Source of the DNA: Flavobacteriaceae bacterium
Lineage (GTDB): Bacteria; Bacteroidota; Bacteroidia; Flavobacteriales; Flavobacteriaceae
Assembly: GCA_013215105.1 (NCBI GenBank)
Contig: JABSPL010000199.1
Location: 1 to 64,000, forward strand
Reading direction: 5' to 3'
DNA length: 64,000 nt
Shown here piece by piece: positions 1,688 through 52,885 of the stretch. Both the position numbers and the translations under genes were made by a program. How positions within the stretch are numbered: the first letter of the stretch is position 1; each line of letters opens with the position of its first letter. The notes below the pieces were generated by a model that was not told where the DNA came from, ran no database searches, and saw only the letters and a program-made list of their open reading frames with translations.

Positions 1688-3067
1688 CTATTTCTTAATA
1701 TAAGTTCCCTTATAGTCACCTTGTCTTAATTCCATTTTGTTTTGCTCTGGGAAGAATTCATAGTACATAGATTCTGCATAAACTTGCTCAAACTCAAAGT
1801 AATTACCTCCTCTATAAACCAAATTTTCTTTAAGATCTTCTTTCATTACTAGTATTAAGAACTTCTCATCACTAGTAAAAGTAATATTCCAAGCTTCTTC
1901 TCCTTCTTTTACTTCTTCCTCAATATAAACGCCTACATATTTTTTTAAGTCAGCCTCCGATATTTCAATCAATTCGTCATTAAAATAATATTCTAATGCC
2001 GTAGTCATTATTTCATTTTGGTTATTATCCATTCCGTTAGATAGTAATGAAATACTCAATTTATCTTTAGGAAAATATATAACTACCGATTTGAAACCAT
2101 CTATAGACCCTCTATGACCAAAACCTTCTCTCCCACTTATAGAAAACCTAAAAATACCCATTCCATGATTGTCACTAATTACAGTCATCATATCTAGACT
2201 CTTCTTCGAAATTATTTTTTTGGTAAACAATAAATGCATAAATTTATTTATCTCGCTAGGAGTAGAAACTATAGCAGCAGCTCCCATACCGTTAGATAAG
2301 TCTGCCTCAGCTTCCTTTACCCATTTATCATCTTTGTATTTATAAGAATAACTTTCGTTGTTGCTTATATCTGTTTTACCTCCATAATAAGTGTTTTTAA
2401 GCCCAAACGGTATAGATATCTTTTCATGTATCAATTCCTTTAAACTCATATTATACACATTTTCTAGTATTACAGATAACAATACATAATTAGAATTACT
2501 ATAAGCACCCTTGCTATTTGGCTCAAAATCACTTTCGTAAGTCGATATCATATCTACCAACTTTTCGGACGGTGTATATTCTGTATAATAAATTCTAAAA
2601 GCCTTATCACTAGTATAATTATATATTCCACTACTGTGATTAAGCAAGTTCCCTATAGTTATTTTACTTGCATTTTTTACTTTAGGAAAATAGCCGTCTA
2701 TAGTCTGTTCTATTTCCAATTTACCTTCTTCTATAGCTTTTAGAACCAATACAGCCGTAAATGTTTTAGAAATAGAACCAGTTCTATATTTAGTATTTAT
2801 ATCAGAAGCTTCCTTAGTTTCTATATCGTCAAAACCTATAGAGTTAGTATATATAGATTTCCCATCATATGCCAAAGCTATGCCTCCCATATATTTTCTG
2901 TTATCGCTATACATCGCCATCAAACTATCTAGCTTAGGTTCATCTAAACTATACTTGTTTATAACCTGTTTTACTTCTTCTCGATTTGCTTGTTTTGTTT
3001 TTTCTCCCCACGAGCAAGACGATAACATCATAATAATGGATAGAGATAATAATAATTGTTTTTTCAT
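1688..3067 (-). CDS. serine hydrolase, beta-lactamase/PBP family (PF00144-like) lipoprotein, paralog 1
   Basis: SxxK motif (SISK), YSN motif, lipobox LSSCSW; 459 aa. Confidence 0.8.
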   Translation of the reverse strand: MKKQLLLSLSIIMMLSSCSWGEKTKQANREEVKQVINKYSLDEPKLDSLMAMYSDNRKYMGGIALAYDGKSIYTNSIGFDDIETKEASDINTKYRTGSISKTFTAVLVLKAIEEGKLEIEQTIDGYFPKVKNASKITIGNLLNHSSGIYNYTSDKAFRIYYTEYTPSEKLVDMISTYESDFEPNSKGAYSNSNYVLLSVILENVYNMSLKELIHEKISIPFGLKNTYYGGKTDISNNESYSYKYKDDKWVKEAEADLSNGMGAAAIVSTPSEINKFMHLLFTKKIISKKSLDMMTVISDNHGMGIFRFSISGREGFGHRGSIDGFKSVVIYFPKDKLSISLLSNGMDNNQNEIMTTALEYYFNDELIEISEADLKKYVGVYIEEEVKEGEEAWNITFTSDEKFLILVMKEDLKENLVYRGGNYFEFEQVYAESMYYEFFPEQNKMELRQGDYKGTYIKK

Positions 3068-3137: not shown

Positions 3138-4529
3138 TTATTCTCTAAAAAAAACACCTTTACTATTACCTTGCGTATACTCTACTTTATTTAGTTCTGG
3201 AAAAAACCTATAATGTATAGCCTCTGCATAAATCTGTTCAAATACAAAGTAATTACCTCCTTTATAAACCAAATTTTCTTTAAACTCATCTCCTATAGCC
3301 AGTATTAAGAACTTCTCATCACTAATAAAAGTAAAATCACCAGGCTCTTCTCCTTCTTTTACTTTTTCTTTTGGTTCAAGATAAACACCTACATATTTTT
3401 TTAAATCAGCCTCTGATATCTCTATTAACTCATCGTTAAAATAGTAACCTAACGCAGTAGTCATTATCTCATTTTGGTTATTATCCGTTCCGTTAGATAG
3501 TAATGAAATACTCAACTTATCTTTTGGAAAATATATAACTACCGATTTGAAACCACTTAAATCCCCTCTATGACCAAAACCTTCTCTTCCACTTATAGAA
3601 AACCTAAAAATACCCATTCCATGAGTACCGCTAATCACAGTCATCATGTCTATACTCTTCTTAGAAATTATTTTCTCGCTAAACAATAAATGCATAAACT
3701 TATTTAAGTCGCTAGTAGTAGAAACTATAGCACCTGCACCCATAGCGTTAGACAGATCTCCCTCAGGTTCCTTTACCCATTTATTACCTCTGTATTTGTA
3801 AGAATTAGTTTCGTTGTTACTTAAATCTGTTTTACCTCCATAATAAGTGTTTTTAAGTCCAAACGGTATAGATATCTTTGCCTGTATCAATTCTTTTAAA
3901 CTCATATTATATACCTTTTCTAGAATTACAGATAATAACACATAATTAGAATTACTATAAGCCCCTCTGCTGTTTGGTTCAAAGTCACTTTCGTAAGTCG
4001 ATATCATATCTACCAACTTTTCAGACGGTGTATATTCTGTGTAATATGTTCTAAATGCTTTGTCGCTAGTGTAATTATATATCCCACTCCTGTGGTTAAG
4101 CAAGTTGCCGATGGTTATTTTACTTGCATTTTTCACTTTAGGGAAATAACCTTCTATAGTCTGTTCTATTTTTAATTTACCCTCTTCTATTGCTTTAAAA
4201 ACCAATACAGCTGTAAATGTTTTAGAAATAGAACCTATTCTATATTTAGTATTTATATCAGAAGTCTCCTTAGTTTCTATATCGTTAAAACCTATAGAGT
4301 TAGTATATATAGACTTTCCGTCGTGTGCCAAAGCTATTCCTCCCATATATTTTCCGTTATCACTATACACAGCAAGCAGACTATCTAGCTTAGGCTCGTC
4401 TAAACTATACTTGCTTATAATCTGTTTTACTTCTTCTTCGCCTTGTTTTGCTTGTTTTGTTTTTTCGCCCCATGAGCAAGACGATAACATTATAATAATG
4501 GATAACGATAATAATAATTGTTTTTTCAT
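3138..4529 (-). CDS. serine hydrolase, beta-lactamase/PBP family lipoprotein, paralog 2 (tandem duplicate)
   Basis: roughly 85% aa identity to adjacent ORF (estimated by eye); same SISK/YSN motifs and identical signal peptide. Confidence 0.8.
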   Translation of the reverse strand: MKKQLLLSLSIIIMLSSCSWGEKTKQAKQGEEEVKQIISKYSLDEPKLDSLLAVYSDNGKYMGGIALAHDGKSIYTNSIGFNDIETKETSDINTKYRIGSISKTFTAVLVFKAIEEGKLKIEQTIEGYFPKVKNASKITIGNLLNHRSGIYNYTSDKAFRTYYTEYTPSEKLVDMISTYESDFEPNSRGAYSNSNYVLLSVILEKVYNMSLKELIQAKISIPFGLKNTYYGGKTDLSNNETNSYKYRGNKWVKEPEGDLSNAMGAGAIVSTTSDLNKFMHLLFSEKIISKKSIDMMTVISGTHGMGIFRFSISGREGFGHRGDLSGFKSVVIYFPKDKLSISLLSNGTDNNQNEIMTTALGYYFNDELIEISEADLKKYVGVYLEPKEKVKEGEEPGDFTFISDEKFLILAIGDEFKENLVYKGGNYFVFEQIYAEAIHYRFFPELNKVEYTQGNSKGVFFRE

Positions 4530-11263: not shown

Positions 11264-11623
11264 TTATTCTACTATAATATTATCTCCTTTAGGATTCTCT
11301 CCGTATTCGTTACTTCCTATATCACTGTCTGTAACGAACAATACAAGTAGCCATATAGCCCCCACCAAAGGAATAAAAGCTATAAGATACATCCATCCAC
11401 TTTTCCCTATATCGTGAAGTCTTCTTACCGAAACAGCTAATTTAGGAATGAATAAAAGTACCGAATAAATAAATAAAAGATAATTATTTCCTGTTATATA
11501 TGACATCGCAGACAGTGATACTGTAAAAATAAAATTAAACAAAACGAACATCCAATATTCTTTTCGTCTAGCTCTCCCGTTAAAGTCTGCATATTGTTTT
11601 AAAACTTTTATATACCAATCCAT
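11264..11623 (-). CDS. DUF805 family inner-membrane protein
   Basis: 'GRARRKEYWMFVLFN' signature, 3 TM helices. Confidence 0.7.
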   Translation of the reverse strand: MDWYIKVLKQYADFNGRARRKEYWMFVLFNFIFTVSLSAMSYITGNNYLLFIYSVLLFIPKLAVSVRRLHDIGKSGWMYLIAFIPLVGAIWLLVLFVTDSDIGSNEYGENPKGDNIIVE

Positions 11624-11773
11624 TTTTATTCTTCCCTACTCATAGGCTTTTCGGTATCGCCTCGTTTTTTTAGTGATATCTGAACTTCACTTTCGATATA
11701 ACAAAAGCTAATATACATTATTTAAACAAATACTATTGAGTTTTATACATAAATATAATATGGTATAACACAA

Positions 11774-13547: not shown

Positions 13548-14441
13548 TTAAAAAATTTCATTCCATTTAAAGGTTTCTGATAGCCTTATACCTCTTTCTG
13601 TTTTTTTCAATGTACACAATTCATTTACACTATCGTGCTCCATAAAGATATAGTAATCATTATCAACAACCATATTAAGAAAATCAGATTTTTCGCTCAT
13701 AGTAAGTAAAGGTCTAGTGTCGTAACCCATAACATAAGCCAGAGGAATATGTCCTACAGTAGGTAACATGTCAGCCGCAAAAACTATAGTCTTACCTTTG
13801 TATTTAATTATAGGTATCATTTGTTTTTCGGTATGCCCGTCAACGTATAGCACCGAAAAGTTCAGAGGTGATTCTTCTAAGATACTACCTTTACCTTTGT
13901 TTACAAATTTAAGTTGTCCGCTTTCTTGTATTGGAAATATATTTTCTTTAAGAAAGGAAGCTTTTTCTCTAGGATTTGGTTCTGTAGCCCAAAGCCAATG
14001 TTGCTCGTTAGACCAATATGTTGCATTTTTGAATGCGGGTCTATAACCCTGTTTGTTCTCTGTCCATTCTACAGAGCCTCCACAATGATCAAAATGTAAG
14101 TGAGTCAAAAATACATCGGTGATATCGTCTTTAGTAAAACCGTGCTTAGCCAAAGATTGTTCTAAACTAAAATCACCAAAAAGATGAAAATGCCCAAAAA
14201 ACTTTTCGGATTGTTTATTCCCTATACCTGTATCTATAAGTATAAGTCTATCTCCATCTTCTATAAGCATAGAACGCATGCTTAAAGTTATAAGATTATT
14301 AGAATCGGCAGGATTCGTTTTCTGCCAAATGGTTTTTGGCACTACTCCAAACATAGCTCCTCCGTCTAGTTTAAGATTTCCTGTCTCTATAGGGTATATT
14401 GTCATGAGTTCCTTTAATACTAAATTATATAATTGTCCCAA
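13548..14441 (-). CDS. MBL-fold metallo-hydrolase
   Basis: THLHFDHCGG zinc-binding motif. Confidence 0.8.
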   Translation of the reverse strand: MGQLYNLVLKELMTIYPIETGNLKLDGGAMFGVVPKTIWQKTNPADSNNLITLSMRSMLIEDGDRLILIDTGIGNKQSEKFFGHFHLFGDFSLEQSLAKHGFTKDDITDVFLTHLHFDHCGGSVEWTENKQGYRPAFKNATYWSNEQHWLWATEPNPREKASFLKENIFPIQESGQLKFVNKGKGSILEESPLNFSVLYVDGHTEKQMIPIIKYKGKTIVFAADMLPTVGHIPLAYVMGYDTRPLLTMSEKSDFLNMVVDNDYYIFMEHDSVNELCTLKKTERGIRLSETFKWNEIF

Positions 14442-15089
14442 AATTATATAATTTAGTTTAATAAACTATTATATAATTTTATAATTAATTGTTAAATACG
14501 ATATGCAAAACAAATACATTTCCACAAGAAAAAAGGCATCTATAAAAGATACCTTTTTTTCCCTTTTCGATTACACTTTAAATATTATTACATAAGTGCA
14601 CTTTATAGCAATCCCCCCGCCTTATAAGTCTATAAAATATTACATTTACCGACTTTCGAACACTACTTTTTTTAGTAGCGATTATCAAATGTAAACATTA
14701 TTATTCATATACACAAGTTTTTACGTAATTTCATATATTTACTTACACTGGTTCTCTATAAAAAAATTCCATTTATTGGAACTTTCTTATAGACCATCCA
14801 ATCTTTAGTCAGATAGTAAATTTACTAAAAAAAAAGTAAAACACATACTATCCTTTTCAAACACTGTATGGCAAATAACATATAAATCTGAAAGCTCAAC
14901 CAGAAGGGTGAAATATGATGTATAATATACCGTACCTACGGTATAAGCCTAAAACCAAAACAATAGTTACATTAATAAATATTGAATAGTCAAAACAAGG
15001 ATATTGAGGTTGGGCTGTACCACCCCTCTACGAGATATCCCAACGGTTAACCTCTTATATATTTTTATTTTAAACTAAAGCTAATACCA

Positions 15090-15245
15090 ATTAAATTTCT
15101 AAATGTCATAATAGAAATAGAATTATTTATTGCTTTAACAAGGCGAAAAATCTAAGTATAGCCTTAGCTATGGTTCTATTTTTTAACGCTGGTAAAGTGA
15201 AAAAGAAACTATATATATAGGACAGATGGATGTTTAACTGGTATA
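15090..15245. repeat. ~160-bp intergenic repeat element, copy A (two more copies at 50.3-50.7 kb)
   Basis: 'ttctaaatgtcataatagaaatagaattattta...aaaaagaaactatatatataggacagatggatgtttaa' matches 50535-50695 and partially 50335-50440. Confidence 0.6.
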
Positions 15246-15254
15246 AACCAAATA

Positions 15255-17591: not shown

Positions 17592-19766
17592 TCAAAAACA
17601 CATAGAAAGCTGAATTCTTTTACGTTCCAAATCAACTTCCTCTACTCTAACTTCTACCTGTTGTTGTAGTTTGACTATATCGTTTATATCTTTCACAAAA
17701 TTATTAGACAACTTAGAAACATGAACCAAACCACTTTCTTTGATACCTATATCGACAAAACAGCCGAAATTGGTGATATTGTTAACTATACCAGGTAATA
17801 TATCTCCTGTTTTTAGGTCATTTATAGTTTTTATACTCTTGTCAAACTCAAAATTCTTAAGAGGTTCTCTAGGATCTAAACCTGGTTTTTTTAGCTCGTC
17901 TATTATATCTTTCAAGGTAGAGACACCTATGTTTTCATCTTTGTAAACCGAAACATCTATACTATCAAGCAAGTCTTTGTTCGAAATAAGACTTGCCAAG
18001 TCTATATTGTTGTCTTTAGCTATTTTATTTATAAGACTATATCTTTCAGGGTGAATTCTGGTATTATCCAGAGGGTTTTTAGCATTTTCTATTCTCAAAA
18101 AAGCTATACTTTGCTCATAAGCTTTATCTCCTAATCGCTTTACCTTTCTCAGTTGCTTCCGGTCAGTAAAAGCACCATTTTCGGTTCTGTAAACAACTAT
18201 ATTTTCGGCAAGTTTAGGGCCTATACCCGACACATAACTAAGTAAATATTTACTAGCAGTATTCAAATTAACCCCTACTTTATTCACACAATGCTCTACC
18301 GTATTGTCAAGTTCACTTTTAAGTTTAGTAGCGTCAACATCGTGTTGATATTGTCCTACTCCTATTGATTTAGCATCTATTTTGACAAGTTCCGCTAAGG
18401 GGTCGGCAAGCCTACGACCTATAGAAATAGCCCCTCTTTGAGTAAGGTCTATATCGGGGAACTCCTCTCTTGCCACTTCCGACGCCGAGTATATAGATGC
18501 ACCAGCCTCGCTAACTACAAAAACAGAAATATCACTATCTAGGTTTAGTTTGTTTATAAACTCTTCGGTCTCCCTCGAAGCCGTACCATTACCTATAGCG
18601 ATAGCTTCTATATTGTATTTTTTTATGTGATTAGCTACAGTATCGGCAGCCTCCAAGTATTTCATCTGTGGCTCGTGAGGATATATAGTGTTATATTTAA
18701 GAAAATCTCCTTGCTTGTTAAGGCTCACAACCTTACAACCCGACCTAAAACCAGGGTCTATTGCCAATATATTCTTACCCGACAAAGGTGATGAAAGTAA
18801 TAATTGCTCCAAATTGGTAGAAAACACTTTTATAGCTATATCTTCTGCTTTTGTTCGGTAAAGACTTAAAGTTTCGTTCGAAATAGCTGGTTCTAACAAT
18901 CTTTTATACGAATCGGCTATTGCAAGTTTTATTTGTTCGGTGCTCTGACTGTTTCCTTTTGCTAGTTTTCGTTCGATAAACGAGATAGACACCTCCTTGT
19001 CTATAGTTGTTTTTGTTTTTATAAAACCTTCATTTTCGGCTCTGAGTATAGCCAATAACCTATGCGAACTACATTTGCTGATATTGGTAGTCATATTAAA
19101 ATAGTCTCTATACTTCTGAGCTTTGGGGTCTTTTTCTTTAGATTTTACTACTTTACTAACAACAGTTGCTCCTTCCGAAAATCTTCGTCTAAGTCCGTTT
19201 CTGATAAGCATATTCTCACTAACCCACTCGGATATTATATGCCTAGCACCTTCCAAAACCTCATCTTTATTCTTTATATTTTCATTAGTAAAACTATCGG
19301 CATATTTGGAGATATTCATATTAGTATCTTCCATTATTTTCTGGGCAAGAGGTTCTAAACCGTTCTTGCGAGCTACTTCTGCTTTAGTTTTACGCTTTTT
19401 CTTATGCGGAAGATAATAATCTTCTAAGTCAGAAAGACTTTGAGTTTTGTTTATATTATCGAACAACGAACTATCCGAAACTCCTCTTTCGTTAAGAGTT
19501 TTTAGTATATATTCTTTTCTTTTGGAAAGTTCTTCGTAGTTCTTTTTACTCTTTTCTATTTCAAAAATATCAACTTCGTTTAAGCCTCCCGTTTTTTCTT
19601 TTCTGTAACGAGATATAAAAGGAATACTATAGTCTTGGTTAAGCATAGACACCGTGTTAGTTATCTTGGTAGTATCTAGTCTGGTGTTGTTTTTTATAAA
19701 CGAAATTAAGCTCATTGATATTGTTTTTTTTGAAAGTGTAAGATATAAAAAAACTAGATTTTTCAT
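17592..19766 (-). CDS. tex: Tex-like transcription accessory protein (YqgF/HhH/S1 domains)
   Basis: N-terminal 'ISRYRKEKTGGLNE', YqgF-like RNase H fold, HhH, C-terminal S1 domain; true start probably Met at 19715. Confidence 0.9.
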   Translation of the reverse strand: MKNLVFLYLTLSKKTISMSLISFIKNNTRLDTTKITNTVSMLNQDYSIPFISRYRKEKTGGLNEVDIFEIEKSKKNYEELSKRKEYILKTLNERGVSDSSLFDNINKTQSLSDLEDYYLPHKKKRKTKAEVARKNGLEPLAQKIMEDTNMNISKYADSFTNENIKNKDEVLEGARHIISEWVSENMLIRNGLRRRFSEGATVVSKVVKSKEKDPKAQKYRDYFNMTTNISKCSSHRLLAILRAENEGFIKTKTTIDKEVSISFIERKLAKGNSQSTEQIKLAIADSYKRLLEPAISNETLSLYRTKAEDIAIKVFSTNLEQLLLSSPLSGKNILAIDPGFRSGCKVVSLNKQGDFLKYNTIYPHEPQMKYLEAADTVANHIKKYNIEAIAIGNGTASRETEEFINKLNLDSDISVFVVSEAGASIYSASEVAREEFPDIDLTQRGAISIGRRLADPLAELVKIDAKSIGVGQYQHDVDATKLKSELDNTVEHCVNKVGVNLNTASKYLLSYVSGIGPKLAENIVVYRTENGAFTDRKQLRKVKRLGDKAYEQSIAFLRIENAKNPLDNTRIHPERYSLINKIAKDNNIDLASLISNKDLLDSIDVSVYKDENIGVSTLKDIIDELKKPGLDPREPLKNFEFDKSIKTINDLKTGDILPGIVNNITNFGCFVDIGIKESGLVHVSKLSNNFVKDINDIVKLQQQVEVRVEEVDLERKRIQLSMCF

Positions 19767-19788
19767 ATGATAAAATGCTGGTTTTTTT

Positions 19789-19829
19789 TGTGGGGTTTAG
19801 TATGTTCAAGAAGTGTCAACTATTATTCA
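19789..19829. repeat. 41-bp perfect direct repeat, left copy (tgtggggtttagtatgttcaagaagtgtcaactattattca)
   Basis: identical to 21742-21782. Confidence 0.9.
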
Positions 19830-19847
19830 GGACTATTGTTTTAGCTT

Positions 19848-20321
19848 CTAGTTTGTTTTGTTGGTCTCGGTTGAATCATATCTATAAATATCAACGTCTG
19901 TAGTTGTCTTAGTTTTATATATAAATTCTATCGTTCTTAGATCGTGTCCAAGTGTAGGAGTTGACTGCTCTTGATTAGTATCAATGTCCATAACAATTCC
20001 TAAAACCGAAGTCAAATCCAAGTCCCTTTTTAGTTTATTTATTATTTCGATTTTATCGTAAAGTAGGTCTACTATTTCTGTAACTATATTATCAAGAAAG
20101 ATTGATTCTTTCCCTTTCTCTGTCGATAATTCCCAGCATGAGTATTTCGTTCTTGGGTTATAAATTCCTTTATCACCTTTTCGCCAACTGACCGTAGGTT
20201 TTGTACCTAGCATATTAGTCACTATTTCTGGGTCAAAGTCGTCCCCTTGGAGAGCAAAGTATATGTAAGAGTTAGATTTTTCCATTTCTATTTTTTTTTG
20301 ATGTTCTACAACGACTAGCAT
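19848..20321 (-). CDS. DUF4279-like hypothetical protein
   Basis: 'YFALQGDDFDPEIVTNMLGTKPTVSWRKGDKG' resembles DUF4279 N-terminal signature. Confidence 0.5.
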   Translation of the reverse strand: MLVVVEHQKKIEMEKSNSYIYFALQGDDFDPEIVTNMLGTKPTVSWRKGDKGIYNPRTKYSCWELSTEKGKESIFLDNIVTEIVDLLYDKIEIINKLKRDLDLTSVLGIVMDIDTNQEQSTPTLGHDLRTIEFIYKTKTTTDVDIYRYDSTETNKTN

Positions 20322-20444
20322 ATGCGGTGTAGGAGTTTTCGAAGAGCTACTTTATATTCATAAACCGAACACCATTAGTATATACGAACTCCATTCCTAA
20401 GGTACTTTTCCTATGGATTATATGCAGAGTTAACAACAGTTTAA

Positions 20445-20891
20445 TTATTTGTGTTTGAGATTATATTCTTTTTCATATTCAGCGTCATCCACGTAATCCA
20501 ACATATTACCAAATTCTTTTATGAAGATGTCGGTAGCAATATTATCAGTTGAAAACTCATACATCAAATAATTCTCTTCATGTGTACCTCCGATCTGCCC
20601 TTTGATATGTACTAGACCATCTTTACTCATTGTAAACTCAACAAAGGCATTTGAATCATTATCCTCAATTTTAGTATGTCCTTGATTTGAACTAGTCATA
20701 TCGATTAAATCAGCACACAGTTTTTCAATTTGATCTTTTCGAATACAAAAGTGACTTGTTCCTGAAAATTTGCCACTTCTTACTGTTAGGTCAAATGTCA
20801 AATTAACCTGTACCATATATCTAGTAGCAAAGGAAATTTCATCTTTCGCGTCTGTAGATTTTAACTCTATTTTATCTGCTAATTCTAACAT
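20445..20891 (-). CDS. hypothetical protein (no recognisable domain)
   Basis: 148-aa ORF, coding-like composition, same strand as neighbours. Confidence 0.5.
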   Translation of the reverse strand: MLELADKIELKSTDAKDEISFATRYMVQVNLTFDLTVRSGKFSGTSHFCIRKDQIEKLCADLIDMTSSNQGHTKIEDNDSNAFVEFTMSKDGLVHIKGQIGGTHEENYLMYEFSTDNIATDIFIKEFGNMLDYVDDAEYEKEYNLKHK

Positions 20892-21010
20892 TTATTTATT
20901 GTTCAATTGCTACTAACGGCTAGAATATATGACGTAGGGGCTTCGAAGTTCTACATTCAATTTCTAAACTACTATCCCTATAGATTGTATGTCTTGTTGT
21001 GCAACGTATT

Positions 21011-21535
21011 TTATATTTTATTTAAAATCCAATTCGATATTTTTTCAATTCGGAATATTATTATTAGCGTCAAAATTGCTTTTAGAATATAGTTTGCAAC
21101 TGCAAAATCAGGCAATTCAATTTCTTTGTTTCCATTCAGCATTGAAATAAATTTTATGCAATATTCAATCAAGCCAGGAAGCAGATAAAACATTTTAGCT
21201 AACCAAATAATAGCAACTGTCAATAAAATCACTTTAGTCAGTGATTTTGGATTCAATTCGGTTTTGATTTCGCTTTTCGTTTTCACGAGCTTTTTAGAAA
21301 TCCAGTCCGCTTTTATGAAAAGAAATAAAGAAACAATGATATTCGCAACAGTCAGAAATGTTCCCGTAAAATAGAATTTATCTATCGGTTCACTAAGTAA
21401 TTCGTCAAATCTGGCCATTGTTGCGGTTCCGTAAATTGAAAAGAAATAAGCTCCGAAATGGTCAAAAATTTCAGTAAATAAATAAATTCCAGCTATTCTT
21501 AAAATTAAGGTTGTTAAGGTTTGGTTCGTCATCAA
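21011..21535 (-). CDS. hypothetical 4-TM membrane protein
   Basis: four hydrophobic helices; 174 aa. Confidence 0.5.
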   Translation of the reverse strand: MMTNQTLTTLILRIAGIYLFTEIFDHFGAYFFSIYGTATMARFDELLSEPIDKFYFTGTFLTVANIIVSLFLFIKADWISKKLVKTKSEIKTELNPKSLTKVILLTVAIIWLAKMFYLLPGLIEYCIKFISMLNGNKEIELPDFAVANYILKAILTLIIIFRIEKISNWILNKI

Positions 21536-21741
21536 TTTTTAGGTTGGTTTATATGTTGCACAATCCCCAAATATAAATAATTAATATCATCCATCTAAGT
21601 TAATATCTATGTTATTTGCCATTTTGATTTATATAACACTACAAGTGCTGAGATGTAACTAATTAAATTACGGATAAAACAGTAAGCCGTAGGGATTGCT
21701 TCGTGCCTCGCAATGACGTATTGTTAATTGTTCTTAATGAC

Positions 21742-21782
21742 TGTGGGGTTTAGTATGTTCAAGAAGTGTCAACTATTATTCA
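21742..21782. repeat. 41-bp perfect direct repeat, right copy
   Basis: identical to 19789-19829. Confidence 0.9.
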
Positions 21783-21861
21783 ATACAATTCAATTTAAAC
21801 AGACTACTTTGTCAACTTAAGGTGTTTGGGGAGGTTCTGTTTGTTTTTTTGTTTTGGTGTC

Positions 21862-22005
21862 TTTCGGTATGGGTTGTGTTACCTGTGCTTAGCATACCCA
21901 GAAGAGCGAGGGGAAAAGATTTTTAGAGTAGTAGTATATTTGATAGATTAGATTTTGAGAATGCTCCTCTATGGTTATGCCATGCTGTAGAGATCTATTT
22001 GTTTT
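21862..22005 (+). repeat. stop-codon-anchored 3' repeat element R1, including a 22-codon C-terminal gene remnant (…SVWVVLPVLSIPRRARGKDF*)
   Basis: about 90% identical by eye to 24164-24300; core 'tttttagagtagta..gatagattagattttgagaatgc.cctctatggtta' shared with 25338-25425. Confidence 0.7.
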
Positions 22006-22156
22006 AGTAAGTTTAATATATTATCTGCTTAGTGTTTTTTTAGTTTCAATTATCATTACACTTGAAAGTTAAAAATATTATGTATATTTAACCTTCTTTA
22101 GGTGAAAAGAGAGCATATTGCTTAATTCAACCTTTAGATAGAATAACCATTTTAAA

Positions 22157-23023
22157 ATGAAAAAAAATACAGTATTAAAATTTATTTTTTGTTTATTACT
22201 ATTAATAGCTTGTAACGAAAATAAAGATAATCTACACACTGATATAAATTCAGAATGGTTTGATATTGACGATATAGGTCATAAAACTTATAGTCTCGAA
22301 GAACCTAAAAGCGATCAACACAACGTGAGTTATTTGCTTTTAGGAGACTCTAAAGCTATTGTATTTGACACCGGATCGGGAGAAAACAAGGCTATAAACG
22401 GTTTTAAAATTAAACCAATTATAGATGAACTAACCAAACTACCTGTCACATTACTAATGTCTCATTTTCACTTTGACCACAATCAAAATATACATGAATT
22501 TAGTAATATAGGTTTTCCCGATTTGAGCTTTTTAAAAAATAATGTTAGCTCTAACGATATTTACACTTTTACTTCCGAAGATTTATTTTATGGTAATTAT
22601 CCTTCAGAAGTAAAAGTTAACAAATGGCTACCTATAAATACCGATATTGACTTAGGTAACAGAATTATTCAACTTGTAAATATACCTGGGCATACCGATG
22701 AGTCTATCGCTATTATTGATAAAACCAACAAAATGGCATTTCTAGGTGATTATCTTTATAATGGCACCTTGTTTTTATTTAACAATAATGATATCACTCT
22801 TTACAAAAAAAGCATAAAACACCTTGTTTCCATATTAGACAGCGATTACAAACTATTTGGGGCACATGGATCTCCAAAAATTGAATATAATAAGTTATCC
22901 AAATTGAATAACTTTCTTATTTGCATTGAAAATAATGAATGTCAATATATAGCCGAAAAATTATGGGGCGAAGATGTGTTTATCTACAAATATGAGGGTA
23001 TGGAAATTCTAATTTTTCAATAA
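22157..23023 (+). CDS. MBL-fold metallo-hydrolase lipoprotein
   Basis: HFHFDH motif, lipobox LIACNE. Confidence 0.75.
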   Translation: MKKNTVLKFIFCLLLLIACNENKDNLHTDINSEWFDIDDIGHKTYSLEEPKSDQHNVSYLLLGDSKAIVFDTGSGENKAINGFKIKPIIDELTKLPVTLLMSHFHFDHNQNIHEFSNIGFPDLSFLKNNVSSNDIYTFTSEDLFYGNYPSEVKVNKWLPINTDIDLGNRIIQLVNIPGHTDESIAIIDKTNKMAFLGDYLYNGTLFLFNNNDITLYKKSIKHLVSILDSDYKLFGAHGSPKIEYNKLSKLNNFLICIENNECQYIAEKLWGEDVFIYKYEGMEILIFQ

Positions 23024-23045
23024 ACCTGACCTCCTTTATTATTGC

Positions 23046-23834
23046 CTAATTTATACTTTTTATTTTTTTTATTGCTTTGTTTGGGTAATTAGTAATTAGC
23101 CCATCTAATTTCAAATCTATTAGATATTGCATTTTTTCTTCATCATCTACGGTATACTTCCATACCTCTATGCCATAACTATGCGCTAAGTCCATAAAGT
23201 CTTTTGTTATTGTAGTTTTAGACCCTACTCCTATAGCATTAGAATTTATCATTTTGGCATATTCTAAAGTGTTTTTGTCTGCATAACCTTTTAAATACAG
23301 TATTTGTATGTTTTTATCTAGTTCTCGTATTTTGGAAATTACAGGGTAAGAGAATGAAAATATAATAACTTCTTCATTCATTTCTAGGTCGTTTATTATT
23401 TTTAACACACCTTCCTCTATTCCATCCACTTTTATTTCTATACAAACCTTTATTTTGCCTTTAGCCAACATCAATGACTCTCTCAGAGTTGGTATTTTTT
23501 CATCTTTATACTTATCGCTAAACTTATCAGGGTAGCCAACTCTTACATCTACTAACTCCTGATATGTCATATTTGCAACATATCCTTTTTTCGAAAAACT
23601 AGTTTTATCTACAGATGAATCATGAATCACAACTATAGAATCGTTTTTAGTCTTATGTACGTCTAATTCGAAATAATCGGCTCCAGAGTCTATAGCTTTA
23701 CTAAAAGCAATTAAAGTATTTTCTGGAGCTATACTAGAAAAACCACGATGTGCTATTATCTTGGTTTGAGAGTTTATTGTCATTGATATTAATAATAACA
23801 ATGACAATATGTTTTGTTTTTTAATTATATTCAT
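23046..23834 (-). CDS. glycerophosphodiester phosphodiesterase (GDPD) family, secreted
   Basis: 'HRGFSSIAPENTLIAF...ADYFELDVHKTKD' GDPD catalytic motif. Confidence 0.85.
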   Translation of the reverse strand: MNIIKKQNILSLLLLISMTINSQTKIIAHRGFSSIAPENTLIAFSKAIDSGADYFELDVHKTKNDSIVVIHDSSVDKTSFSKKGYVANMTYQELVDVRVGYPDKFSDKYKDEKIPTLRESLMLAKGKIKVCIEIKVDGIEEGVLKIINDLEMNEEVIIFSFSYPVISKIRELDKNIQILYLKGYADKNTLEYAKMINSNAIGVGSKTTITKDFMDLAHSYGIEVWKYTVDDEEKMQYLIDLKLDGLITNYPNKAIKKIKSIN

Positions 23835-23893
23835 GAGTAGTTTGTTTGTGTTTAGTTATCCGTTTACGACTATACAAATATATACTTATTTAG

Positions 23894-24229
23894 GTGTCAA
23901 CTGTATTGTTAAGCGCCGTGAAGCCTATATTTAACCTAAACATAACGAGCTGTATACAATGGGGGTTTTTGCTTTCTTTAGTACTGTTACAAGAATATTA
24001 TTTAGGTGAATTCTCGCTAATAGTAACTATGTTTAACCCTATAGACCTTTCCAGAATATTGTTATTGTTACAACTTGACATAGCAGCATTACTAGGATAT
24101 ACTGGAGCAGTATTCCAAAAATTCTTTGGTACTAGTATGGGGATGATAACCTCTATAGCTATGCTTTCGGTATGGGTTGTGTTACCTGTGCTTAGTATAC
24201 CCGGAAGAGCGAGGAAGAAAGATTTTTAG
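23894..24229 (+). CDS. hypothetical membrane-protein fragment (probable gene remnant)
   Basis: no N-terminal context; C-terminal 22 aa and 3' flank repeated at 21862. Confidence 0.35.
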   Translation: MSTVLLSAVKPIFNLNITSCIQWGFLLSLVLLQEYYLGEFSLIVTMFNPIDLSRILLLLQLDIAALLGYTGAVFQKFFGTSMGMITSIAMLSVWVVLPVLSIPGRARKKDF

Positions 24230-24300
24230 AGTAGTAATAGTAGATTTGATAGATTAGATTTTGAAAATGCCCCTCTATGGTTAGCCATGCCTATAAATGT
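24164..24300 (+). repeat. 3' repeat element R2
   Basis: see R1. Confidence 0.7.
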
Positions 24301-24379
24301 GTGTTTTTTTAAATTAAATATCTAATTACAGAGATATATTATCTTTTTAAAGTATTTGTGCTGATTTGTAAATTGGAAG

Positions 24380-25345
24380 TTGTTTTTTAAACAATATATT
24401 TGTAACCACAATCATAAAACCTTTTTAATGAAAATTAAAACACAGTATATCCTAATTCTTGTATTAGTTATATTAATTTCTTGTAAAGAAAAAATTAAAA
24501 CAGAAAACAACAATACGACTATAAATATAAAATCATCAAAAAAAGAAGAGGTAAAACCTTATAAGATATATAATAGTGAAGTTTTTTCTATAAAATCGGA
24601 TATTATAGGGAAGGAGTATAAGATATATGTCAAATTACCTAAATCTTATAAAAAATCAGACAAGAGCTATCCTATATTGATGCTTACTGATGCTAATTAT
24701 TCATTCCCTTTAGTTTCGTCTATTTACCGAAGACTGAGTTCTAAGGTTGATCCGTTTATTATAATTGGTATTTCTTACGCAAAGGGAGAGCATTTCGGAA
24801 CAAGTAGGACAAGGGACTATACACCTACGTATTCTCCTAATGAACCAAATGGCTATACAAAAGAATCAAGACTTTCATCAGGGCAAGCAGATAAATTTAT
24901 AGATTTTATGACTAATCAGCTGATGGTTACTTTACAAAACAAATACAGAATAGACGCTAGTAAAAAAGTGTTTGCAGGGCATTCGTTAGGAGGTTTACTG
25001 GCAAACTATATGGTTGTGAGCAAGCCCGAAAGCTTTGATTATTATCTGTCAGGAAGTCCTTCACTCTGGTATCATGATAAATCTATATTAGAAATAGAAG
25101 AGAAATATAGTAAAACTGTAAGTGATATAAAAGCTAATTTGTTTATGTGTATAGGAGGTAAAGAAGAAACTCAAGGAGAGTATAAAATGATATCGGATAT
25201 GTACGAATTTCAGAAAAAACTACTGTCTAGAAACTACAAAAGCTTAAATATAAAAAGTGTAGTTGTAGACGATGAAGACCATGAAACGGTATACCCTAGT
25301 TTTATAACAAAAGGTATTATTATGGCTTTTGGCAAAGGTTTTTAG
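24380..25345 (+). CDS. alpha/beta-hydrolase esterase (putative esterase / enterochelin-esterase-like) lipoprotein
   Basis: GHSLGG nucleophile elbow; lipobox LISCKE. Confidence 0.75.
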   Translation: MFFKQYICNHNHKTFLMKIKTQYILILVLVILISCKEKIKTENNNTTINIKSSKKEEVKPYKIYNSEVFSIKSDIIGKEYKIYVKLPKSYKKSDKSYPILMLTDANYSFPLVSSIYRRLSSKVDPFIIIGISYAKGEHFGTSRTRDYTPTYSPNEPNGYTKESRLSSGQADKFIDFMTNQLMVTLQNKYRIDASKKVFAGHSLGGLLANYMVVSKPESFDYYLSGSPSLWYHDKSILEIEEKYSKTVSDIKANLFMCIGGKEETQGEYKMISDMYEFQKKLLSRNYKSLNIKSVVVDDEDHETVYPSFITKGIIMAFGKGF

Positions 25346-25425
25346 AGTAATAGTAGATATGATAGATTAGATTTTGAGAATACCCCTCTATGGTTACGTC
25401 ATGATGTAGAGAGGTGTTTTTTTCG
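25338..25425 (+). repeat. 3' repeat element R3 (starts at the stop codon of the esterase gene; contains hairpin + T7)
   Basis: see R1. Confidence 0.7.
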
Positions 25426-25443
25426 GTTTAGTATTTATAAAAG

Positions 25444-25929
25444 TTATCTGTTCATATAAAGCTGAGCACAAGCACGAGCATCAGAAAGAGCATCGTGATG
25501 TTGTAATTCTATATTGTCAACAGCGCAACATTCGTTAAGTTTTCCTGAAGGATATCTATCGTTTGCTCTGCACATTTTCATGGTGCATTCCCATTTTTCC
25601 TGTATGTTTAATTCAGAATAATCAAGGTTGTTTTCTGCCATTGTTTTTTGCAATACTCTACGGTCGAACGATTCGTTATGAGCAACTACGATTTTTCCTT
25701 GCATTCTTTTTCTTATTTCAGGGTAAATTTCAGAAAAATCATGAGCATTACGAGTGTCCTGAGCAGTAATACCGTGAACCTTGGTTGTAAACCAGCTATA
25801 CTCATTGTTAGGTGGTTTTATTAATGTGTGATATTCGTCTATTATTATACCGTCTTTGATAGTGACAATACCAACGGAACAAATATGATGTTGTATTGCT
25901 GTTTCAAAATCTATTGCTATAAAATTCAT
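25444..25929 (-). CDS. DEDDh 3'-5' exonuclease (DnaQ/epsilon-like domain)
   Basis: Exo I 'AIDFETA', Exo II 'VVAHNESFD', Exo III 'HHDALSDA'. Confidence 0.8.
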   Translation of the reverse strand: MNFIAIDFETAIQHHICSVGIVTIKDGIIIDEYHTLIKPPNNEYSWFTTKVHGITAQDTRNAHDFSEIYPEIRKRMQGKIVVAHNESFDRRVLQKTMAENNLDYSELNIQEKWECTMKMCRANDRYPSGKLNECCAVDNIELQHHDALSDARACAQLYMNR

Positions 25930-46760: not shown

Positions 46761-49157
46761 TTACCACCGATCAGAGCAGTCTCCCCATTTAGGGGTTCCC
46801 GTATTTATAGCCCCATCATTAAAACCAGAAGGTTCTGCAGCTACTCCACATGCTTTCCAAGAACTTAAATTTTGATTAAAGTCAACTGCCTGATTAAACA
46901 TGTCTGTCATATCAGAAACACGGCTAACATCCCATTCTCCTATATCTTGATTGAAAGGAGTATTAGCAAACATTGATCTCATAGAATCCACATTACTAAC
47001 ATTCCATTCTCCTATATCTTGATTGAAAGGAGTATTAGCAAGCATTAGATTCATGTATATGACATTACTAACATTCCAAGTCTTTATGTTTTGATTAAAC
47101 ATTGATGCTCCCGCAAACATTTTACCCATATGCCAAACAGAGCTAACATTCCAACCTCCTATATATTTATCGAATTTTGTTGCACTCCTAAACATCCCTC
47201 TCATATTTTTAACAGAGCTAACATCCCATTCTTTCAGATCATGATTAATATTACTACCATAAAACAGATAGCTCATATCAGTAACAGAACTAACATCCCA
47301 AGTATTAATACCCAAATCAATCCATGATTGATCATCTAGGCTAACACTTTCGAACATCCATCTCATATTAGTCACTCCTTCCATATTCGGTTTGTTTATA
47401 GAGGACATAGTTTTTAATCTAGAACAGCTCTTAAAATACCCACCTTCGTTACCAAATCTAAAATCATCTCCCCATCTAAGAATTTTTATTATTTTATATT
47501 TAGATGTTGAATTTTTATCAAAACTAAAACCATGTAACTTACCTTTTATAATCACTGTCATATCTCCTGATCTATCAAATATATGAGAGGCTCCTGCATC
47601 ATTGTGACTAGTAACACTTTCACTATCATAATATCCTGATGAAGAATGCCAGTCAATTTTGAAATCATAATCTCCTCCATCATATATAGGTAATTCTATT
47701 TTATCTCCGGAGTTAACAGAAAAAACAATAACAAAATCGGCTTTACTTATAGTAATGCTATATTCTTTACTTGTACTTTTATCTTCCGATGTTACAATGA
47801 ACCTATTATTAACACCTTCCTGATCTAAATAGACCTTCCTTAAATTTGTAATTTCAATACCATTCACCTCTAAAGAAGCTCCTTCACTTATATTTAATCC
47901 TAATGATGAATCACCTATATTTTCACCAATATATAAGTTAAGTTCTATAATATCTGTTACGGGTATACTACTGCCATATCTATTTAAGGAAGTAATTAAT
48001 GCTTCGTTGTTTTTAGATATATTGACTACTATAGAGTACTCTTTACTAGTTTTCAGATCTTCTGAGGTAACTACAAAAGTCCTTTTAACTCCATCATCAA
48101 AAATGAGATTATTTAAATTTGTTATTTTAATACCATTCTCACTTATAGATGCTCCTGCACTTATAGTTAAATTTAGAGTCTGTATTTCTTCTTTATAAGG
48201 AGAAGAAACATCAATATCATCACTTATTTCTACATCCTGATTATTGTAGCTTATTGAAACTATTTTAGCTTCACTGCCTTTCTCCACACTAATGGTTATA
48301 GAGTACTCTTTACTAGTTTTCAGATCTTCTGAAGTAACTACAAAAGTCCTTTTAACTCCATCATCAAAAATGAGATTATTTAAATTTGTTATTTTAATAC
48401 CATTTTCACTTATAAATGCTCCTGTACTTATAGTTAAATTTAGAGTCTGTATTTCTTCTTTAGAAGGAGAAGAAACATCAATATCATCACTTATTTCTAT
48501 ATCCTGATTATTGTAGCTTATTGAAATTATTTTAGCAGAATTAGATTTCTCTATATTAATAGTTATACTATATTCTTTACTAGCAGATCTATCTTCTGAA
48601 ATTACTATAAAGACTCTCTTAATTCCATCGTTAAAAATAAGATCACTTAATATTGTTATTTCATTATTCCCTTCTTTTAATGTAGCACCCTCACTTATGT
48701 CCAGAGTTATTGTTTGTATTTCTTCGCCATAAGATAAATTAATATTAACATTACTTTTAACTTCTACAGGCTTATCATTATATATTATTGATATCATACT
48801 AGCCTTAGTACTTTTTGGGGAATTAATGGTTAAAGTATACTCGTTAGCTGTCCCATCTTGAGCCGTCACCAGTAAAACCTGAGGAACACCGTTTTCTAAT
48901 TTTAGATCACTAAGGCTAGGAGATATCGTTGCTCCATAACTTACAACTCCAGAGAGTTCAATATCTGATAGGTCTATGTTTTGACTAATAGTAATAGATA
49001 TAGAGTTATTTTCATCAATAATGGTCTCTACAGAATAAGACTTAGCCCCTATTGATAGCTCAACCAAATAAGCCTCGCTATTTAAGACTGGTGTATATTT
49101 ATAACAGCTAAACATCAAAAGTAGCATAGCCAATGAAATTAATGATTTATTCTTCAT
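46761..49157 (-). CDS. BspA-type leucine-rich-repeat (DUF285) surface protein with N-terminal tandem Ig-like repeats
   Basis: C-terminal 'W.VSNV..M..MF..A..FNQDI..W' DUF285 repeats; five ~89-aa N-terminal repeats, three nearly identical. Confidence 0.75.
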   Translation of the reverse strand: MKNKSLISLAMLLLMFSCYKYTPVLNSEAYLVELSIGAKSYSVETIIDENNSISITISQNIDLSDIELSGVVSYGATISPSLSDLKLENGVPQVLLVTAQDGTANEYTLTINSPKSTKASMISIIYNDKPVEVKSNVNINLSYGEEIQTITLDISEGATLKEGNNEITILSDLIFNDGIKRVFIVISEDRSASKEYSITINIEKSNSAKIISISYNNQDIEISDDIDVSSPSKEEIQTLNLTISTGAFISENGIKITNLNNLIFDDGVKRTFVVTSEDLKTSKEYSITISVEKGSEAKIVSISYNNQDVEISDDIDVSSPYKEEIQTLNLTISAGASISENGIKITNLNNLIFDDGVKRTFVVTSEDLKTSKEYSIVVNISKNNEALITSLNRYGSSIPVTDIIELNLYIGENIGDSSLGLNISEGASLEVNGIEITNLRKVYLDQEGVNNRFIVTSEDKSTSKEYSITISKADFVIVFSVNSGDKIELPIYDGGDYDFKIDWHSSSGYYDSESVTSHNDAGASHIFDRSGDMTVIIKGKLHGFSFDKNSTSKYKIIKILRWGDDFRFGNEGGYFKSCSRLKTMSSINKPNMEGVTNMRWMFESVSLDDQSWIDLGINTWDVSSVTDMSYLFYGSNINHDLKEWDVSSVKNMRGMFRSATKFDKYIGGWNVSSVWHMGKMFAGASMFNQNIKTWNVSNVIYMNLMLANTPFNQDIGEWNVSNVDSMRSMFANTPFNQDIGEWDVSRVSDMTDMFNQAVDFNQNLSSWKACGVAAEPSGFNDGAINTGTPKWGDCSDRW
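47780..48860 (-). repeat. intragenic tandem repeats (~267-bp period) within BspA-like gene
   Basis: 'SKEYSITI...FDDGVKRTFVVTSEDLKT' repeated; supplied ORFs 48007-48198 and 48292-48507 are near-identical artefacts of these repeats. Confidence 0.8.
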
Positions 49158-50230: not shown

Positions 50231-50334
50231 TCGTAAGTAAAACCATCTTAAGTTTATAAAGCAGTATGTTTAATAAAATAATTAAGCTATAAACAAAGGA
50301 TAATAAGACTGTTAATACCAATCGTATTTAAAAC

Positions 50335-50695
50335 TAATATTATTTAAATGTTCTACGTGAGCTATATTTAAAATAGAAAAGAACTCGTAAAAGTAAAAAA
50401 ATAGGCTATTTATATAGGGCAGATGGAAGTTTAAATAATATAAACTACTCTTTATACTTAGGATAAACTATTTTTTTTATGTTTACGAAAAGTAATTGTT
50501 ACATTTATACTCTTAAATCGTTATAATATATTAATGCTACTTGTATTTCTAAATATCATAATAGAGATGGAATTATTTAAGACTAATATTATTAAGATGT
50601 TCTATGATATCTATTTTTAAAATAAGATAAGAACCCGTAAAAGCAAAAAAGAAACTATTTATATAGTGAGCAGATAGAGATTCAAATGGCATAAC
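50335..50695. repeat. two tandem copies (B1 50335-50440, B2 50535-50695) of the ~160-bp intergenic element also found at 15090-15245
   Basis: direct sequence comparison. Confidence 0.6.
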
Positions 50696-52250: not shown

Positions 52251-52885
52251 GAGTCGTTTGTTTATAGTCCTTATAATAAATTTCGGGTCTTTAAAAATGG
52301 CTTTTTTTTAGAAATAAAAGCCAGACTTTTATCTGTATATGCTTGTGGCAAAACTGCTGACTTTAGTATATATCGTGGTGTTAGATAAAATATATATACA
52401 GGAAAAACAAATACCTTGACGGTCAAAAAAGATATTGTAGTTATATTAGTAATTAAGTTAAAAGGTTCTGTATTGTATTTATTCACAGCTATCACTTTTT
52501 GATTATACAGCTACAAATATATTTTTTTTTAGATATCTAATATGTTATTAAGTAGCACATAGTTGATATTTAACCTAAACATAACAACTATATAAATATT
52601 ACTTATTGTATCTGTAAGTAATACCAACCTAAGTTTGCATATATCTATTTCTACAAGGGCATTTTGAAATACCAATGCAAATGCAGAGTCGTTTAACTAT
52701 AAAATAAAACTATTCAGAGTAAACTTAAGAGGGGTTTCTGATACTAAGTTTTTTATGTTTAGGCTACATAAACTTTTTACCTAATCTCCCAGAAATATAT
52801 GTGAGCCATTTAAATGTATAAAAAAAGCCAACCAGATTAATGATTGACGGATTTTTATATTTAGCCTCTGTTTTGCATAAATCAC

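Follow-up and report, generated by a model that had tools for sequence, protein, structure and literature searches.

The three short repeats at this locus, each lying at the 3′ end of a reading frame, raise the question of whether they are recombination sites, a mobile element or pieces of a gene end that were copied from elsewhere. The window (the whole stretch of 64,000 nucleotides that was analysed) had been described in the initial annotation as holding a three-copy family at 21862, 24164 and 25338, and this family, called R here, is real. The degenerate core of 36 nt has exactly three matches in the 64 kb, always on the + strand (R1, 21942-21977; R2, 24248-24283; R3, 25361-25396), and none in 100 shuffles. 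The repeat search delimited a 93-nt family of three copies (21912-22004, 24218-24310 and 25331-25423) and an R1/R2 pair of 76 nt with 92% identity (21861-21936 and 24164-24239), with both of which BLAST of the window against itself agreed. The similarity of R1 and R2 reaches about 15 nt beyond the T-run (21861-22019 against 24164-24321), and the copies are spaced by 2.3 kb (R1-R2) and 1.1 kb (R2-R3). The idea that each copy begins exactly at a TAG stop codon had to be abandoned, since the homology starts 5′ of TAG in all three and extends over 264 nt in R2 (23966-24229), 66 nt in R1 (21861-21926) and about 9-12 nt in R3 (25334-25345). The coding sequence of about 60 bp that R1 and R2 were said to share was found to measure 66 bp, and R1 indeed has no intact gene in front of it, only a nosY stub lacking the gene body. 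The ORF preceding R2 (23894-24229) is likewise not an intact gene; it is a C-terminal fragment of NosY. Independent contigs of other samples cover R1 (L093, L094) and R3 (L001, L003-L006) at a level of at least 99.9%, and R2 is bridged by the overlap of contigs L094 and L001; independent assemblies confirm every junction. The only scaffold that spans R2 (L002) appeared to confirm this copy and was dropped, as it contains an N-gap inside R2 with R1-type SNPs adjoining.

The source of the repeat was found on contig L007 from the same metagenome samples, which carries intact nosL-nosD-nosF-nosY. Its nosY, which encodes the permease of the nitrous-oxide reductase operon, is an intact ORF of 260 aa (L007 3183-3965) with the terminus ...GRARKKDF-TAG, directly followed by a fourth copy (R4). 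The BLAST identity to L007 is 91% over 347 nt for R2 (L007 3702-4044), 85.6% for R1 (3900-4045) and 85.7% for R3. The nos contig is present in four of the samples that also hold the contigs of the window, and it comes from the same population as the window or from a very close one; none of its proteins is in the NCBI MAG, and it may belong to a different chromosome. Every one of the 79 NosY relatives whose end is readable terminates in (K/R)(K/R/Q)DF-stop, mostly KKDF or RKDF, their terminal codons being encoded AARGAYTTTTAR. Therefore, the TTTTTAG anchor noted earlier is nosY coding sequence. In none of these 79 relatives is the 3′ flank R-like, the flanks being unrelated to R. Many short NosY proteins in the databases, which at first seemed to reflect widespread truncations, turned out to be gene-calling artefacts, given that nosY on L007 is an intact ORF. 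A profile built from the four copies recovered, with nhmmer, only those copies in 539 kb and none at 80 other nosY loci; the exact or degenerate motif gave 0 matches in GTDB representative genomes, JGI metagenomes and viral contigs, and R2 had no blastn match among plasmids. The similarity is thus essentially confined to these copies through local duplication, the sole addition being the source copy behind intact nosY; further copies may lie in the rest of the genome, outside the window scanned.

The extent of 5′ truncation differs from copy to copy, with 87 nosY codons left in R2, 22 in R1 and about 3 in R3. The nosY 3′ fragment at R2 (23966-24229, + strand; 87 codons plus stop, equivalent to NosY residues about 174-260 of 260) sits within a 111-aa ORF annotated at NCBI as a hypothetical protein. 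It is 91% identical to intact L007 NosY at both the nucleotide and the protein level, and a protein search with it returned 147 NosY matches, named 'Cu-processing system permease'. The R1 coding remnant (21861-21926, + strand) consists of the last 21 nosY codons and TAG, ending in LSVWVVLPVLSIPRRARGKDF-stop. The dN/dS of 0.93 between R1 and R2 points to neutral decay. The R2 fragment gives a dN/dS of 0.25 on 19 differences from L007 nosY, by which it may stem from a different nosY, functional until recently, and not from the L007 gene; such a gene may have belonged to a nos operon that this genome has lost, or may have arrived with imported DNA.

The third copy is attached to a complete gene. 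The esterase gene (PF00756; 24428-25345, + strand) has its last codons fused to the nosY tail, and at the R3 junction (25334-25345, + strand; AAAGGTTTTTAG) nosY-type last codons and stop are read as the esterase C-terminus, ..AFGK-GF-stop. Thirteen esterase homologues end in ..AF(G/K)KE-stop or close to it, as compared with AFGKGF-stop in the window. The esterase gene would have met the last codons of nosY at an AAAG microhomology and would draw its final two residues, stop codon and terminator from the nosY tail, of which the hairpin and U-run look working. The R3 3′ flank (25346-25423, + strand; nhmmer E = 7e-23), a nosY 3′UTR copy with preserved hairpin and T7, is probably the terminator of the esterase gene. 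In relatives the esterase has different neighbours and synteny is not conserved, and therefore provides no information on the ancestral locus.

A hairpin followed by a T-run had been ascribed to every copy, which holds well for R3, partly for R1 and not for R2. The R4 copy behind L007 nosY forms a perfect 19-bp hairpin (-25.7 kcal/mol, z -6.35) followed by U9, and the R3 hairpin (-13.4 kcal/mol, z -2.6) is followed by T7. The R1 3′ flank (21927-22005, + strand; nhmmer E = 2e-22), also a nosY 3′UTR copy, has a weakened hairpin (stem 21967-21992; -10.6 kcal/mol, z -1.7) and an interrupted T-run. In the corresponding 3′UTR copy at R2 (24230-24310, + strand; nhmmer E = 2.5e-21) the hairpin has decayed to the level of shuffled sequences (-4.1 kcal/mol, z +0.3), and T7 is kept at 24304-24310. 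A stable stem-loop with a U/T-run 3′ of the stop is thus found in the L007 copy and R3, is weak in R1 and is lacking in R2; a terminator consensus scan flagged R1 only. Terminator activity of the R copies is predicted from the sequence, and the quality of the hairpin tracks the presence of a live gene upstream.

The initial annotation had also regarded the segment from 21.5 to 25.5 kb as a mosaic, and the neighbourhood of the repeats bears this out, with an 83% GDPD paralogue, a nosY/GDPD junction and a recA-tail fragment 70 nt upstream of R1. The GDPD gene with its upstream region (23047-23956, - strand), supported by Pfam matches, has a segmental paralogue at 51454-52594, in which the gene survives as a split pseudogene; BLAST gave 82.8% identity over 810 nt between 23047-23847 and the pseudogene (51454-52263), and a further 72.6% over 84 nt. 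Its boundary abuts the nosY fragment, and a short TATA(C)A microhomology marks the point where this fragment meets the sequence upstream of GDPD. The S element (21742-21790, - strand), part of the recA 3′UTR in copy, lies back to back with R1 and is 94% identical to 19789-19837 and 90% identical to L007 7034-7075. The 70-nt spacer between S and R1 (21791-21860) was considered as a recA-tail remnant and rejected, its alignment to L007 recA not being significant (1891 of 2000 shuffles reached the score); its resemblance to the 3′ end of the window's DUF4279 gene is marginal (75 of 2000). That 3′ end is now formed by a remnant of the recA coding tail with 3′UTR and decayed terminator (19734-19900, - strand), an alignment whose score was reached by none of 2000 shuffles and whose homology clearly runs on past the terminator. 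The recA tail behind DUF4279 is a second case of gene-tail capture. The accessory genes of the region are DUF4279, a WapI-like immunity gene, a metallo-beta-lactamase-fold (MBL) hydrolase, GDPD and the esterase, and only MBL, GDPD, the nosY fragment and the esterase lie between R1 and R3. The MBL gene (22157-23023, + strand) is cargo between R1 and R2 with no paralogue in the window, its candidate paralogue, the MBL gene at 13548-14441, having been rejected. The composition profile showed no GC anomaly across the segment, and a 174-aa neighbour protein had no database record.

It is quite probable, in our judgement, that the R sequences are partial copies of the last nosY codons, 3′UTR and terminator, left amid a patchwork of accessory genes, and do not constitute an autonomous element. 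This agrees with the earlier suggestion of shared 3′UTR/terminator modules copied along with gene ends, the module being the nosY tail with its native terminator. The homology, boundaries, source gene, hairpin energies and absence elsewhere in the collections searched are observed, whereas the way in which the copies recombined, and in what order, is inferred. R consists of the last nosY codons (..KKDF-TAG), a lineage-specific 3′UTR and a predicted Rho-independent terminator, and the three copies of the window are old and diverged (about 85-91% identity) within a 3.6-kb accessory-gene patchwork. They most likely originated by illegitimate recombination at the level of microhomology together with local segmental duplication; against this, the microhomologies at the junctions span no more than 4-7 nt of AT-rich DNA. 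R2 behind a dead nosY fragment and R1 behind a 22-codon stub would be relics with decaying hairpins. What also counts against debris is that three copies in the same orientation with a common terminator end are somewhat more regular than random illegitimate events predict.

A different history, which we regard as unlikely, is that the locus is the relic of an integration into the nosY 3′ end, with attL/attR-type repeats and a lost integrase, or that a nos operon was deleted here down to its tail. R1 and R2 repeat a gene 3′ end in direct orientation around 2.3 kb of cargo, the low dN/dS suggests that the nosY behind the R2 fragment lost its function only recently, the region is accessory, and both the nosY and recA tails are present, these genes lying next to each other in L007, convergent and just 3 kb apart. 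However, the segment and its surroundings contain no integrase, excisionase or tRNA gene, and no recombinase lies inside a flanked segment with an intact target gene at its border, as neither end has an intact nosY body. Moreover, the longest fragment (R2) is central and not at an edge, its 5′ junction adjoins the paralogous GDPD segment and not nosF, and the 5′ ends differ among the three copies, unlike a fixed att core. In 80 other lineages, neither recA nor the island genes of the window were found within 2.5 kb of nosY.

It is less likely still that the lineage repeatedly grafts accessory genes onto the last codons, 3′UTR and terminator of core genes, whose tails would serve as portable 3′ landing pads. 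Within 6 kb, tails have been captured twice and independently, that of nosY by the esterase and that of recA by DUF4279, and the recA-3′UTR fragment and nosY tail stand back to back at 21742-21926, an arrangement that would result if a nosY-recA inter-tail segment had been circularised or duplicated in tandem. If such grafting were true, it would point to islands being assembled, or transferred from a variable hotspot, by a specific mechanism and not to random debris.

It is very unlikely that R is a small element, either mobile and non-autonomous or REP-like, which inserts at stop codons or directly behind them and brings a terminator along. The lineage has dispersed intergenic repeats, such as a family of about 170 nt at 15.1, 50.3-50.7 and 56.1 kb and in L007, and metagenome contigs break at R. 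On the other hand, no terminal inverted repeats (at best 9-10 of 25 matches between the element ends) and no target-site duplication were found at R, the flanks being unrelated; the copies number just three, clustered in 64 kb, plus the one in L007. Each carries nosY-derived codons of differing length, and no transposase or RAYT gene was detected by the Pfam scans, which covered window ORFs of at least 100 aa judged likely genes.

The initial annotation had likened the repeats to cassette-associated recombination sites, and a site of this kind, attC-like or of another site-specific recombinase, is highly improbable. The placement at ORF 3′ ends, uniform orientation, internal hairpin and cassette-sized units of 1.1 and 2.3 kb would suit it. 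However, the 130 nt around each copy contain no RYYYAAC or GTTRRRY core on either strand, and whole-element folds do not exceed shuffles on either strand (z -2.05 to +0.38), only the short terminator stem being formed. The same Pfam scans revealed no IntI-type gene, the only tyrosine recombinase being an XerC/D-like Phage_integrase protein with a SAM-like N-domain (62313-63218), 37 kb away. Furthermore, one of the supposed cassettes comprises two opposed genes and a pseudogene fragment, the 5′ part of R is demonstrably nosY coding sequence, and no more copies exist in the genomes, metagenomes, viral contigs and plasmids searched.

There is only a slim chance that R is a functional RNA, either a 3′UTR-derived sRNA or a regulatory 3′UTR, whose similarity is kept by selection. 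The 45 nt from stop to hairpin are about 92% identical among copies, slightly above the descending arm of the hairpin, but the dead coding sequence beside them is just as well conserved (92%), which fits common descent alone. Rfam gave nothing at gathering score and nothing even at E <= 1 in 21500-25500, with sub-threshold chance matches only on L007; beyond the terminator hairpin there is no significant structure, R does not follow nosY in the 79 related lineages, and the differences include 3-nt microsatellite indels. Reverse transcription of 5′-truncated nos mRNA 3′ ends, to which variable 5′ ends and a common 3′ end near the terminator U-tract would correspond, has a negligible likelihood, given the R1-R2 similarity past the T-run, the analogous recA-tail homology beyond its terminator, the clustered rather than dispersed copies and the absence of a reverse transcriptase from the Pfam-scanned ORFs of the window.

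Summarizing, the R repeats are ordinary genome debris and no new recombination system, with little consequence beyond annotation. The hypothetical protein at 23894-24229 should be read as a C-terminal NosY pseudogene fragment, the esterase has a chimeric C-terminus and a borrowed, predicted terminator, and 19.7-25.4 kb is a recombination patchwork whose repeats break metagenome assemblies. The locus would be a small, clean example of an acquired gene capturing a terminator and of a terminator decaying once its upstream gene is dead, and it would become more interesting only if tail capture were systematic genome-wide.

A full-text literature search returned nothing on R-type elements; comparison was made with known systems. 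Integron attC sites are likewise short structured elements at ORF 3′ ends in a cassette-like array, whereas R has no core sites, bottom-strand fold or IntI and is partly nosY coding sequence. REP/BIME and MITE-type repeats are also short, hairpin-bearing and placed just 3′ of genes; R differs in having only four known copies, which are clustered, in lacking inverted repeats and target-site duplications, and in a coding-derived 5′ part of varying length. Gene 3′-end remnants in the form of attL/attR-type direct repeats mark the borders of integrated genomic islands, and R shares with them the direct repetition of a protein-coding gene 3′ end, in one orientation, around accessory genes; here, in contrast, an integrase is missing, as is an intact target gene at the edge of the array, the repeats start at variable points on their 5′ side, and only short microhomology is seen where the pieces join. 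With Rho-independent terminators R shares a G+C-containing hairpin directly followed by a U-run, 35-45 nt after the stop, the nosY copy being canonical. Unlike these, R was copied together with the preceding codons and 3′UTR to two or three other places, where an unrelated gene has taken one copy into use and two others are decaying. Finally, chimeric gene ends arise by illegitimate, microhomology-mediated recombination or segmental duplication, and this locus has the same AAAG and TATA(C)A junctions and the same patchwork of paralogous fragments (nosY tail, GDPD, recA tail) at 8-17% divergence. It differs from them in nothing in principle; the one unusual point is the acquisition of a core gene's tail and terminator by each of two accessory genes within 6 kb.

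The three copies of the repeat element (R1, R2 and R3, in window order) are present as the initial annotation had described them. Its 36-nt degenerate core matched the whole window at 21942-21977, 24248-24283 and 25361-25396, all on the + strand, and gave 0 matches in 100 shuffles. The repeat search of the window returned one 93-nt family with three copies, and the R1/R2 pair over 76 nt at 92%. In the three-way alignment the copies are near-identical from about 10 nt 5' of the stop codon through CCTCTATGGTTA, past which follow a less constant hairpin arm and then a T-run. R1, R3 and all flanking junctions were recovered at 99.9% or more in assemblies made independently from further samples of the study, and R2 was bridged by overlapping contigs. 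The sole scaffold spanning R2, L002, has an N-gap within it (L002 1317-1340, window ~24215-24240) with R1-type variants in the bases immediately before the gap, and several contigs stop at R2 or in the part of nosY that R2 shares. These assembly breaks and the chimeric join in L002 are caused by the repeats.

The ORF located 5' of R2 (23894-24229), which has no match in Pfam and is entered as hypothetical in a Flavobacteriaceae MAG, is homologous to C-terminal parts of NosY, which is the permease of the ABC system for nitrous-oxide-reductase maturation. Its closest homologue (91%) is encoded on L007, a contig from the same metagenome, in the gene order nosL-nosD-nosF and then nosY; this nosY (3183-3965) is split in the database and is an intact 260-aa ORF on direct reading. 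Most protein-database entries for NosY from these AT-rich Flavobacteriia are pieces of 80-150 aa (L007 3183-3965, and also the fetched loci L008 and L010), as gene callers either split the gene or take an ORF in the wrong frame as its first half. The L007 gene ends with ...LSILGRARKKDF-TAG. A fourth R copy, TAGAGTAGTAATAGATTTGATAGATTAGATTTTAGGAAATGCCCCTCTATGG...GTAGAGGGGTG-T9, comes next. Its 19-bp hairpin (-25.7 kcal/mol, z -6.35, 0/200 shuffles) precedes U9, which together form a predicted textbook intrinsic terminator. In the BLAST comparison with the window, L007 3702-4044 matched R2 (23966-24310) at 91%, 3900-4045 matched R1 (21861-22005) at 85.6%, and 3954-4044 matched R3 (25334-25423) at 85.7%. 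The nos contig is present in four of the samples also holding window contigs; as it is absent from the NCBI MAG, an origin of both in the same genome is only likely.

Every copy had been said to start exactly at a TAG stop codon. In a set of 80 metagenomic nosY loci (protein identity 70-77%), the 79 NosY whose end is readable all terminate with (K/R)(K/R/Q)DF-stop, encoded by AARGAYTTTTAR, and the downstream flanks of the fetched loci are unrelated to one another and to R, with two further examples in agreement. Because the ending is shared and the flanks are not, the first 9-12 nt of the annotated element are the native nosY end, and what remains is a 3' flank specific to this lineage rather than a conserved RNA. 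A profile HMM of the four copies (the L007 copy and the three in the window) matched only these in 539 kb (window and all fetched loci), and the motif was found neither in GTDB representative genomes, JGI metagenomes, viral contigs and plasmids nor, as an RNA family, in Rfam. A hairpin-like motif, GGGATTGCTTCGTGCCTCGCAATGACG, is present as a single copy in the window (21683-21716) and resembles a repeat often seen between genes in Bacteroidota; similar CATTGCGAGG...GCAATC sequences lie 3' of nosY in the unrelated metagenome loci L028 and L044.

R1-R3 are all 5'-truncated nosY tails, with 87 nosY codons kept in R2, 22 in R1 and about 3 in R3. Hairpin quality tracks use: it is best in R3, 3' of the live esterase gene (-13.4 kcal/mol, z -2.6), and lost in R2, 3' of a dead fragment (-4.1 kcal/mol, not better than shuffles), while R1 has -10.6 kcal/mol and an interrupted T-run. 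The coding parts of R1 and R2 diverge neutrally (dN/dS 0.93). Since the R2 fragment and L007 nosY give a dN/dS of 0.25, much of their divergence possibly arose while both were functional genes, which on 19 differences is only a hint. Thirteen esterase homologues end in ..WAF(G/K)KE-stop, and the window esterase in ..MAFGKGF-stop. Because its end (GGC AAA GGT TTT TAG) and the nosY tail codons (AAG AAA GAT TTT TAG) share AAAG, the join lies at this microhomology, almost exactly at the natural end of the esterase; nosY supplies the esterase with the final two residues, the stop codon and the predicted terminator.

The surroundings are a mosaic, as proposed initially. The GDPD gene and its upstream region (23047-23956, -) are an 83% / 73% paralogue of 51454-52594 (-). 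The GDPD copy in the mosaic (23046-23834, -) is intact; the other (51453-52250, -) is a pseudogene split into two ORFs, and its upstream region carries an additional ~250 nt (52264-52511). From the end of the GDPD-upstream homology it is 10 nt to the start of the nosY fragment, at a TATA(C)A microhomology. Moreover, the last ~45 nt, 3'UTR and predicted terminator (hairpin -20 kcal/mol, z -7.1) of the intact recA on L007 (6974-7111, -) recur 3' of the DUF4279 gene at 19734-19900 (-), with an alignment score reached in 0/2000 shuffles. The stop of the DUF4279 ORF falls inside recA-derived sequence in another reading frame, and the whole is a second tail capture near R. A 49-nt piece of the recA 3'UTR (21742-21790, -) is placed back to back with R1, on its upstream side and at a distance of 70 nt. 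Adjoining the mosaic, a run of small genes (19848-21535, -; DUF4279, one with a weak match to WapI-like immunity proteins, and one for an unknown protein of 174 aa) looks like an accessory islet of immunity-gene type. At 19700-19766 (-), the longest Tex ORF starts (19766) inside the decayed recA-type terminator hairpin; since Tex_N of Pfam matches only from residue 19 onwards, the true start is probably the ATG near 19715.

The window and L007 also share a family of dispersed repeats of ~170 nt that lie between genes, in at least five copies of 78-84% identity (window 15075-15246 (-), 50325-50436, 50532-50694 and 56020-56170; L007 4279-4447). The family contains a palindrome (56082-56118) and conserves the core TTCTTTTTCACTTT..GCGTTAAAAAA..CCTTGTTAAAGCAA; Rfam gave nothing for it at gathering score, and a MITE or a small RNA is a possible identity. 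A DUF805 RNA motif (RF03081, 67.9 bits; 11629-11695, -) lies immediately 5' of the DUF805 gene (11264-11623), an association already known. Tandem paralogous serine beta-lactamase-family genes (1688-3067 and 3138-4529, both -) share 86.6% identity over 1376 nt, and a large DUF285 / cadherin-like protein gene (46761-49157, -) has internal tandem repeats of ~270 nt (for example, 48030-48394 vs 48297-48661, 87.5%).

Of the readings proposed at the outset, a shared terminator module copied with gene ends is supported, with R consisting of the nosY tail and its native predicted terminator, and a copy standing behind the intact L007 nosY. Copying through a transcript would account for units ending in a terminator and is unlikely, as the R1-R2 similarity runs ~15 nt beyond the T-run and the homology of the recA-tail copy also clearly extends past its terminator. 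The tails of two core genes, convergent neighbours 3 kb apart on L007 (an adjacency not seen among 80 other lineages), were both captured within 6 kb; that a systematic mechanism lies behind this is very improbable. Neither a cassette recombination site nor a mobile element is supported: the R copies have no attC cores, terminal inverted repeats or target-site duplication, the whole element has no significant fold on either strand, no tRNA genes or compositional anomaly were found, and the window ORFs scanned hold no integrase, transposase or reverse transcriptase save one XerC/D-like protein, their sole tyrosine recombinase (62313-63218).

Summarizing, copies of the nosY tail with its native predicted terminator, cut back at the 5' side to three different extents, have probably come to lie among a patchwork of accessory genes, in which R3 has been co-opted as the 3' end of the esterase gene and R1 and R2 are relics. 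Events of this kind (gene remnants, segmental duplication and illegitimate recombination) are already well known, and what is new here is this particular repeat alone, which had not been described previously.
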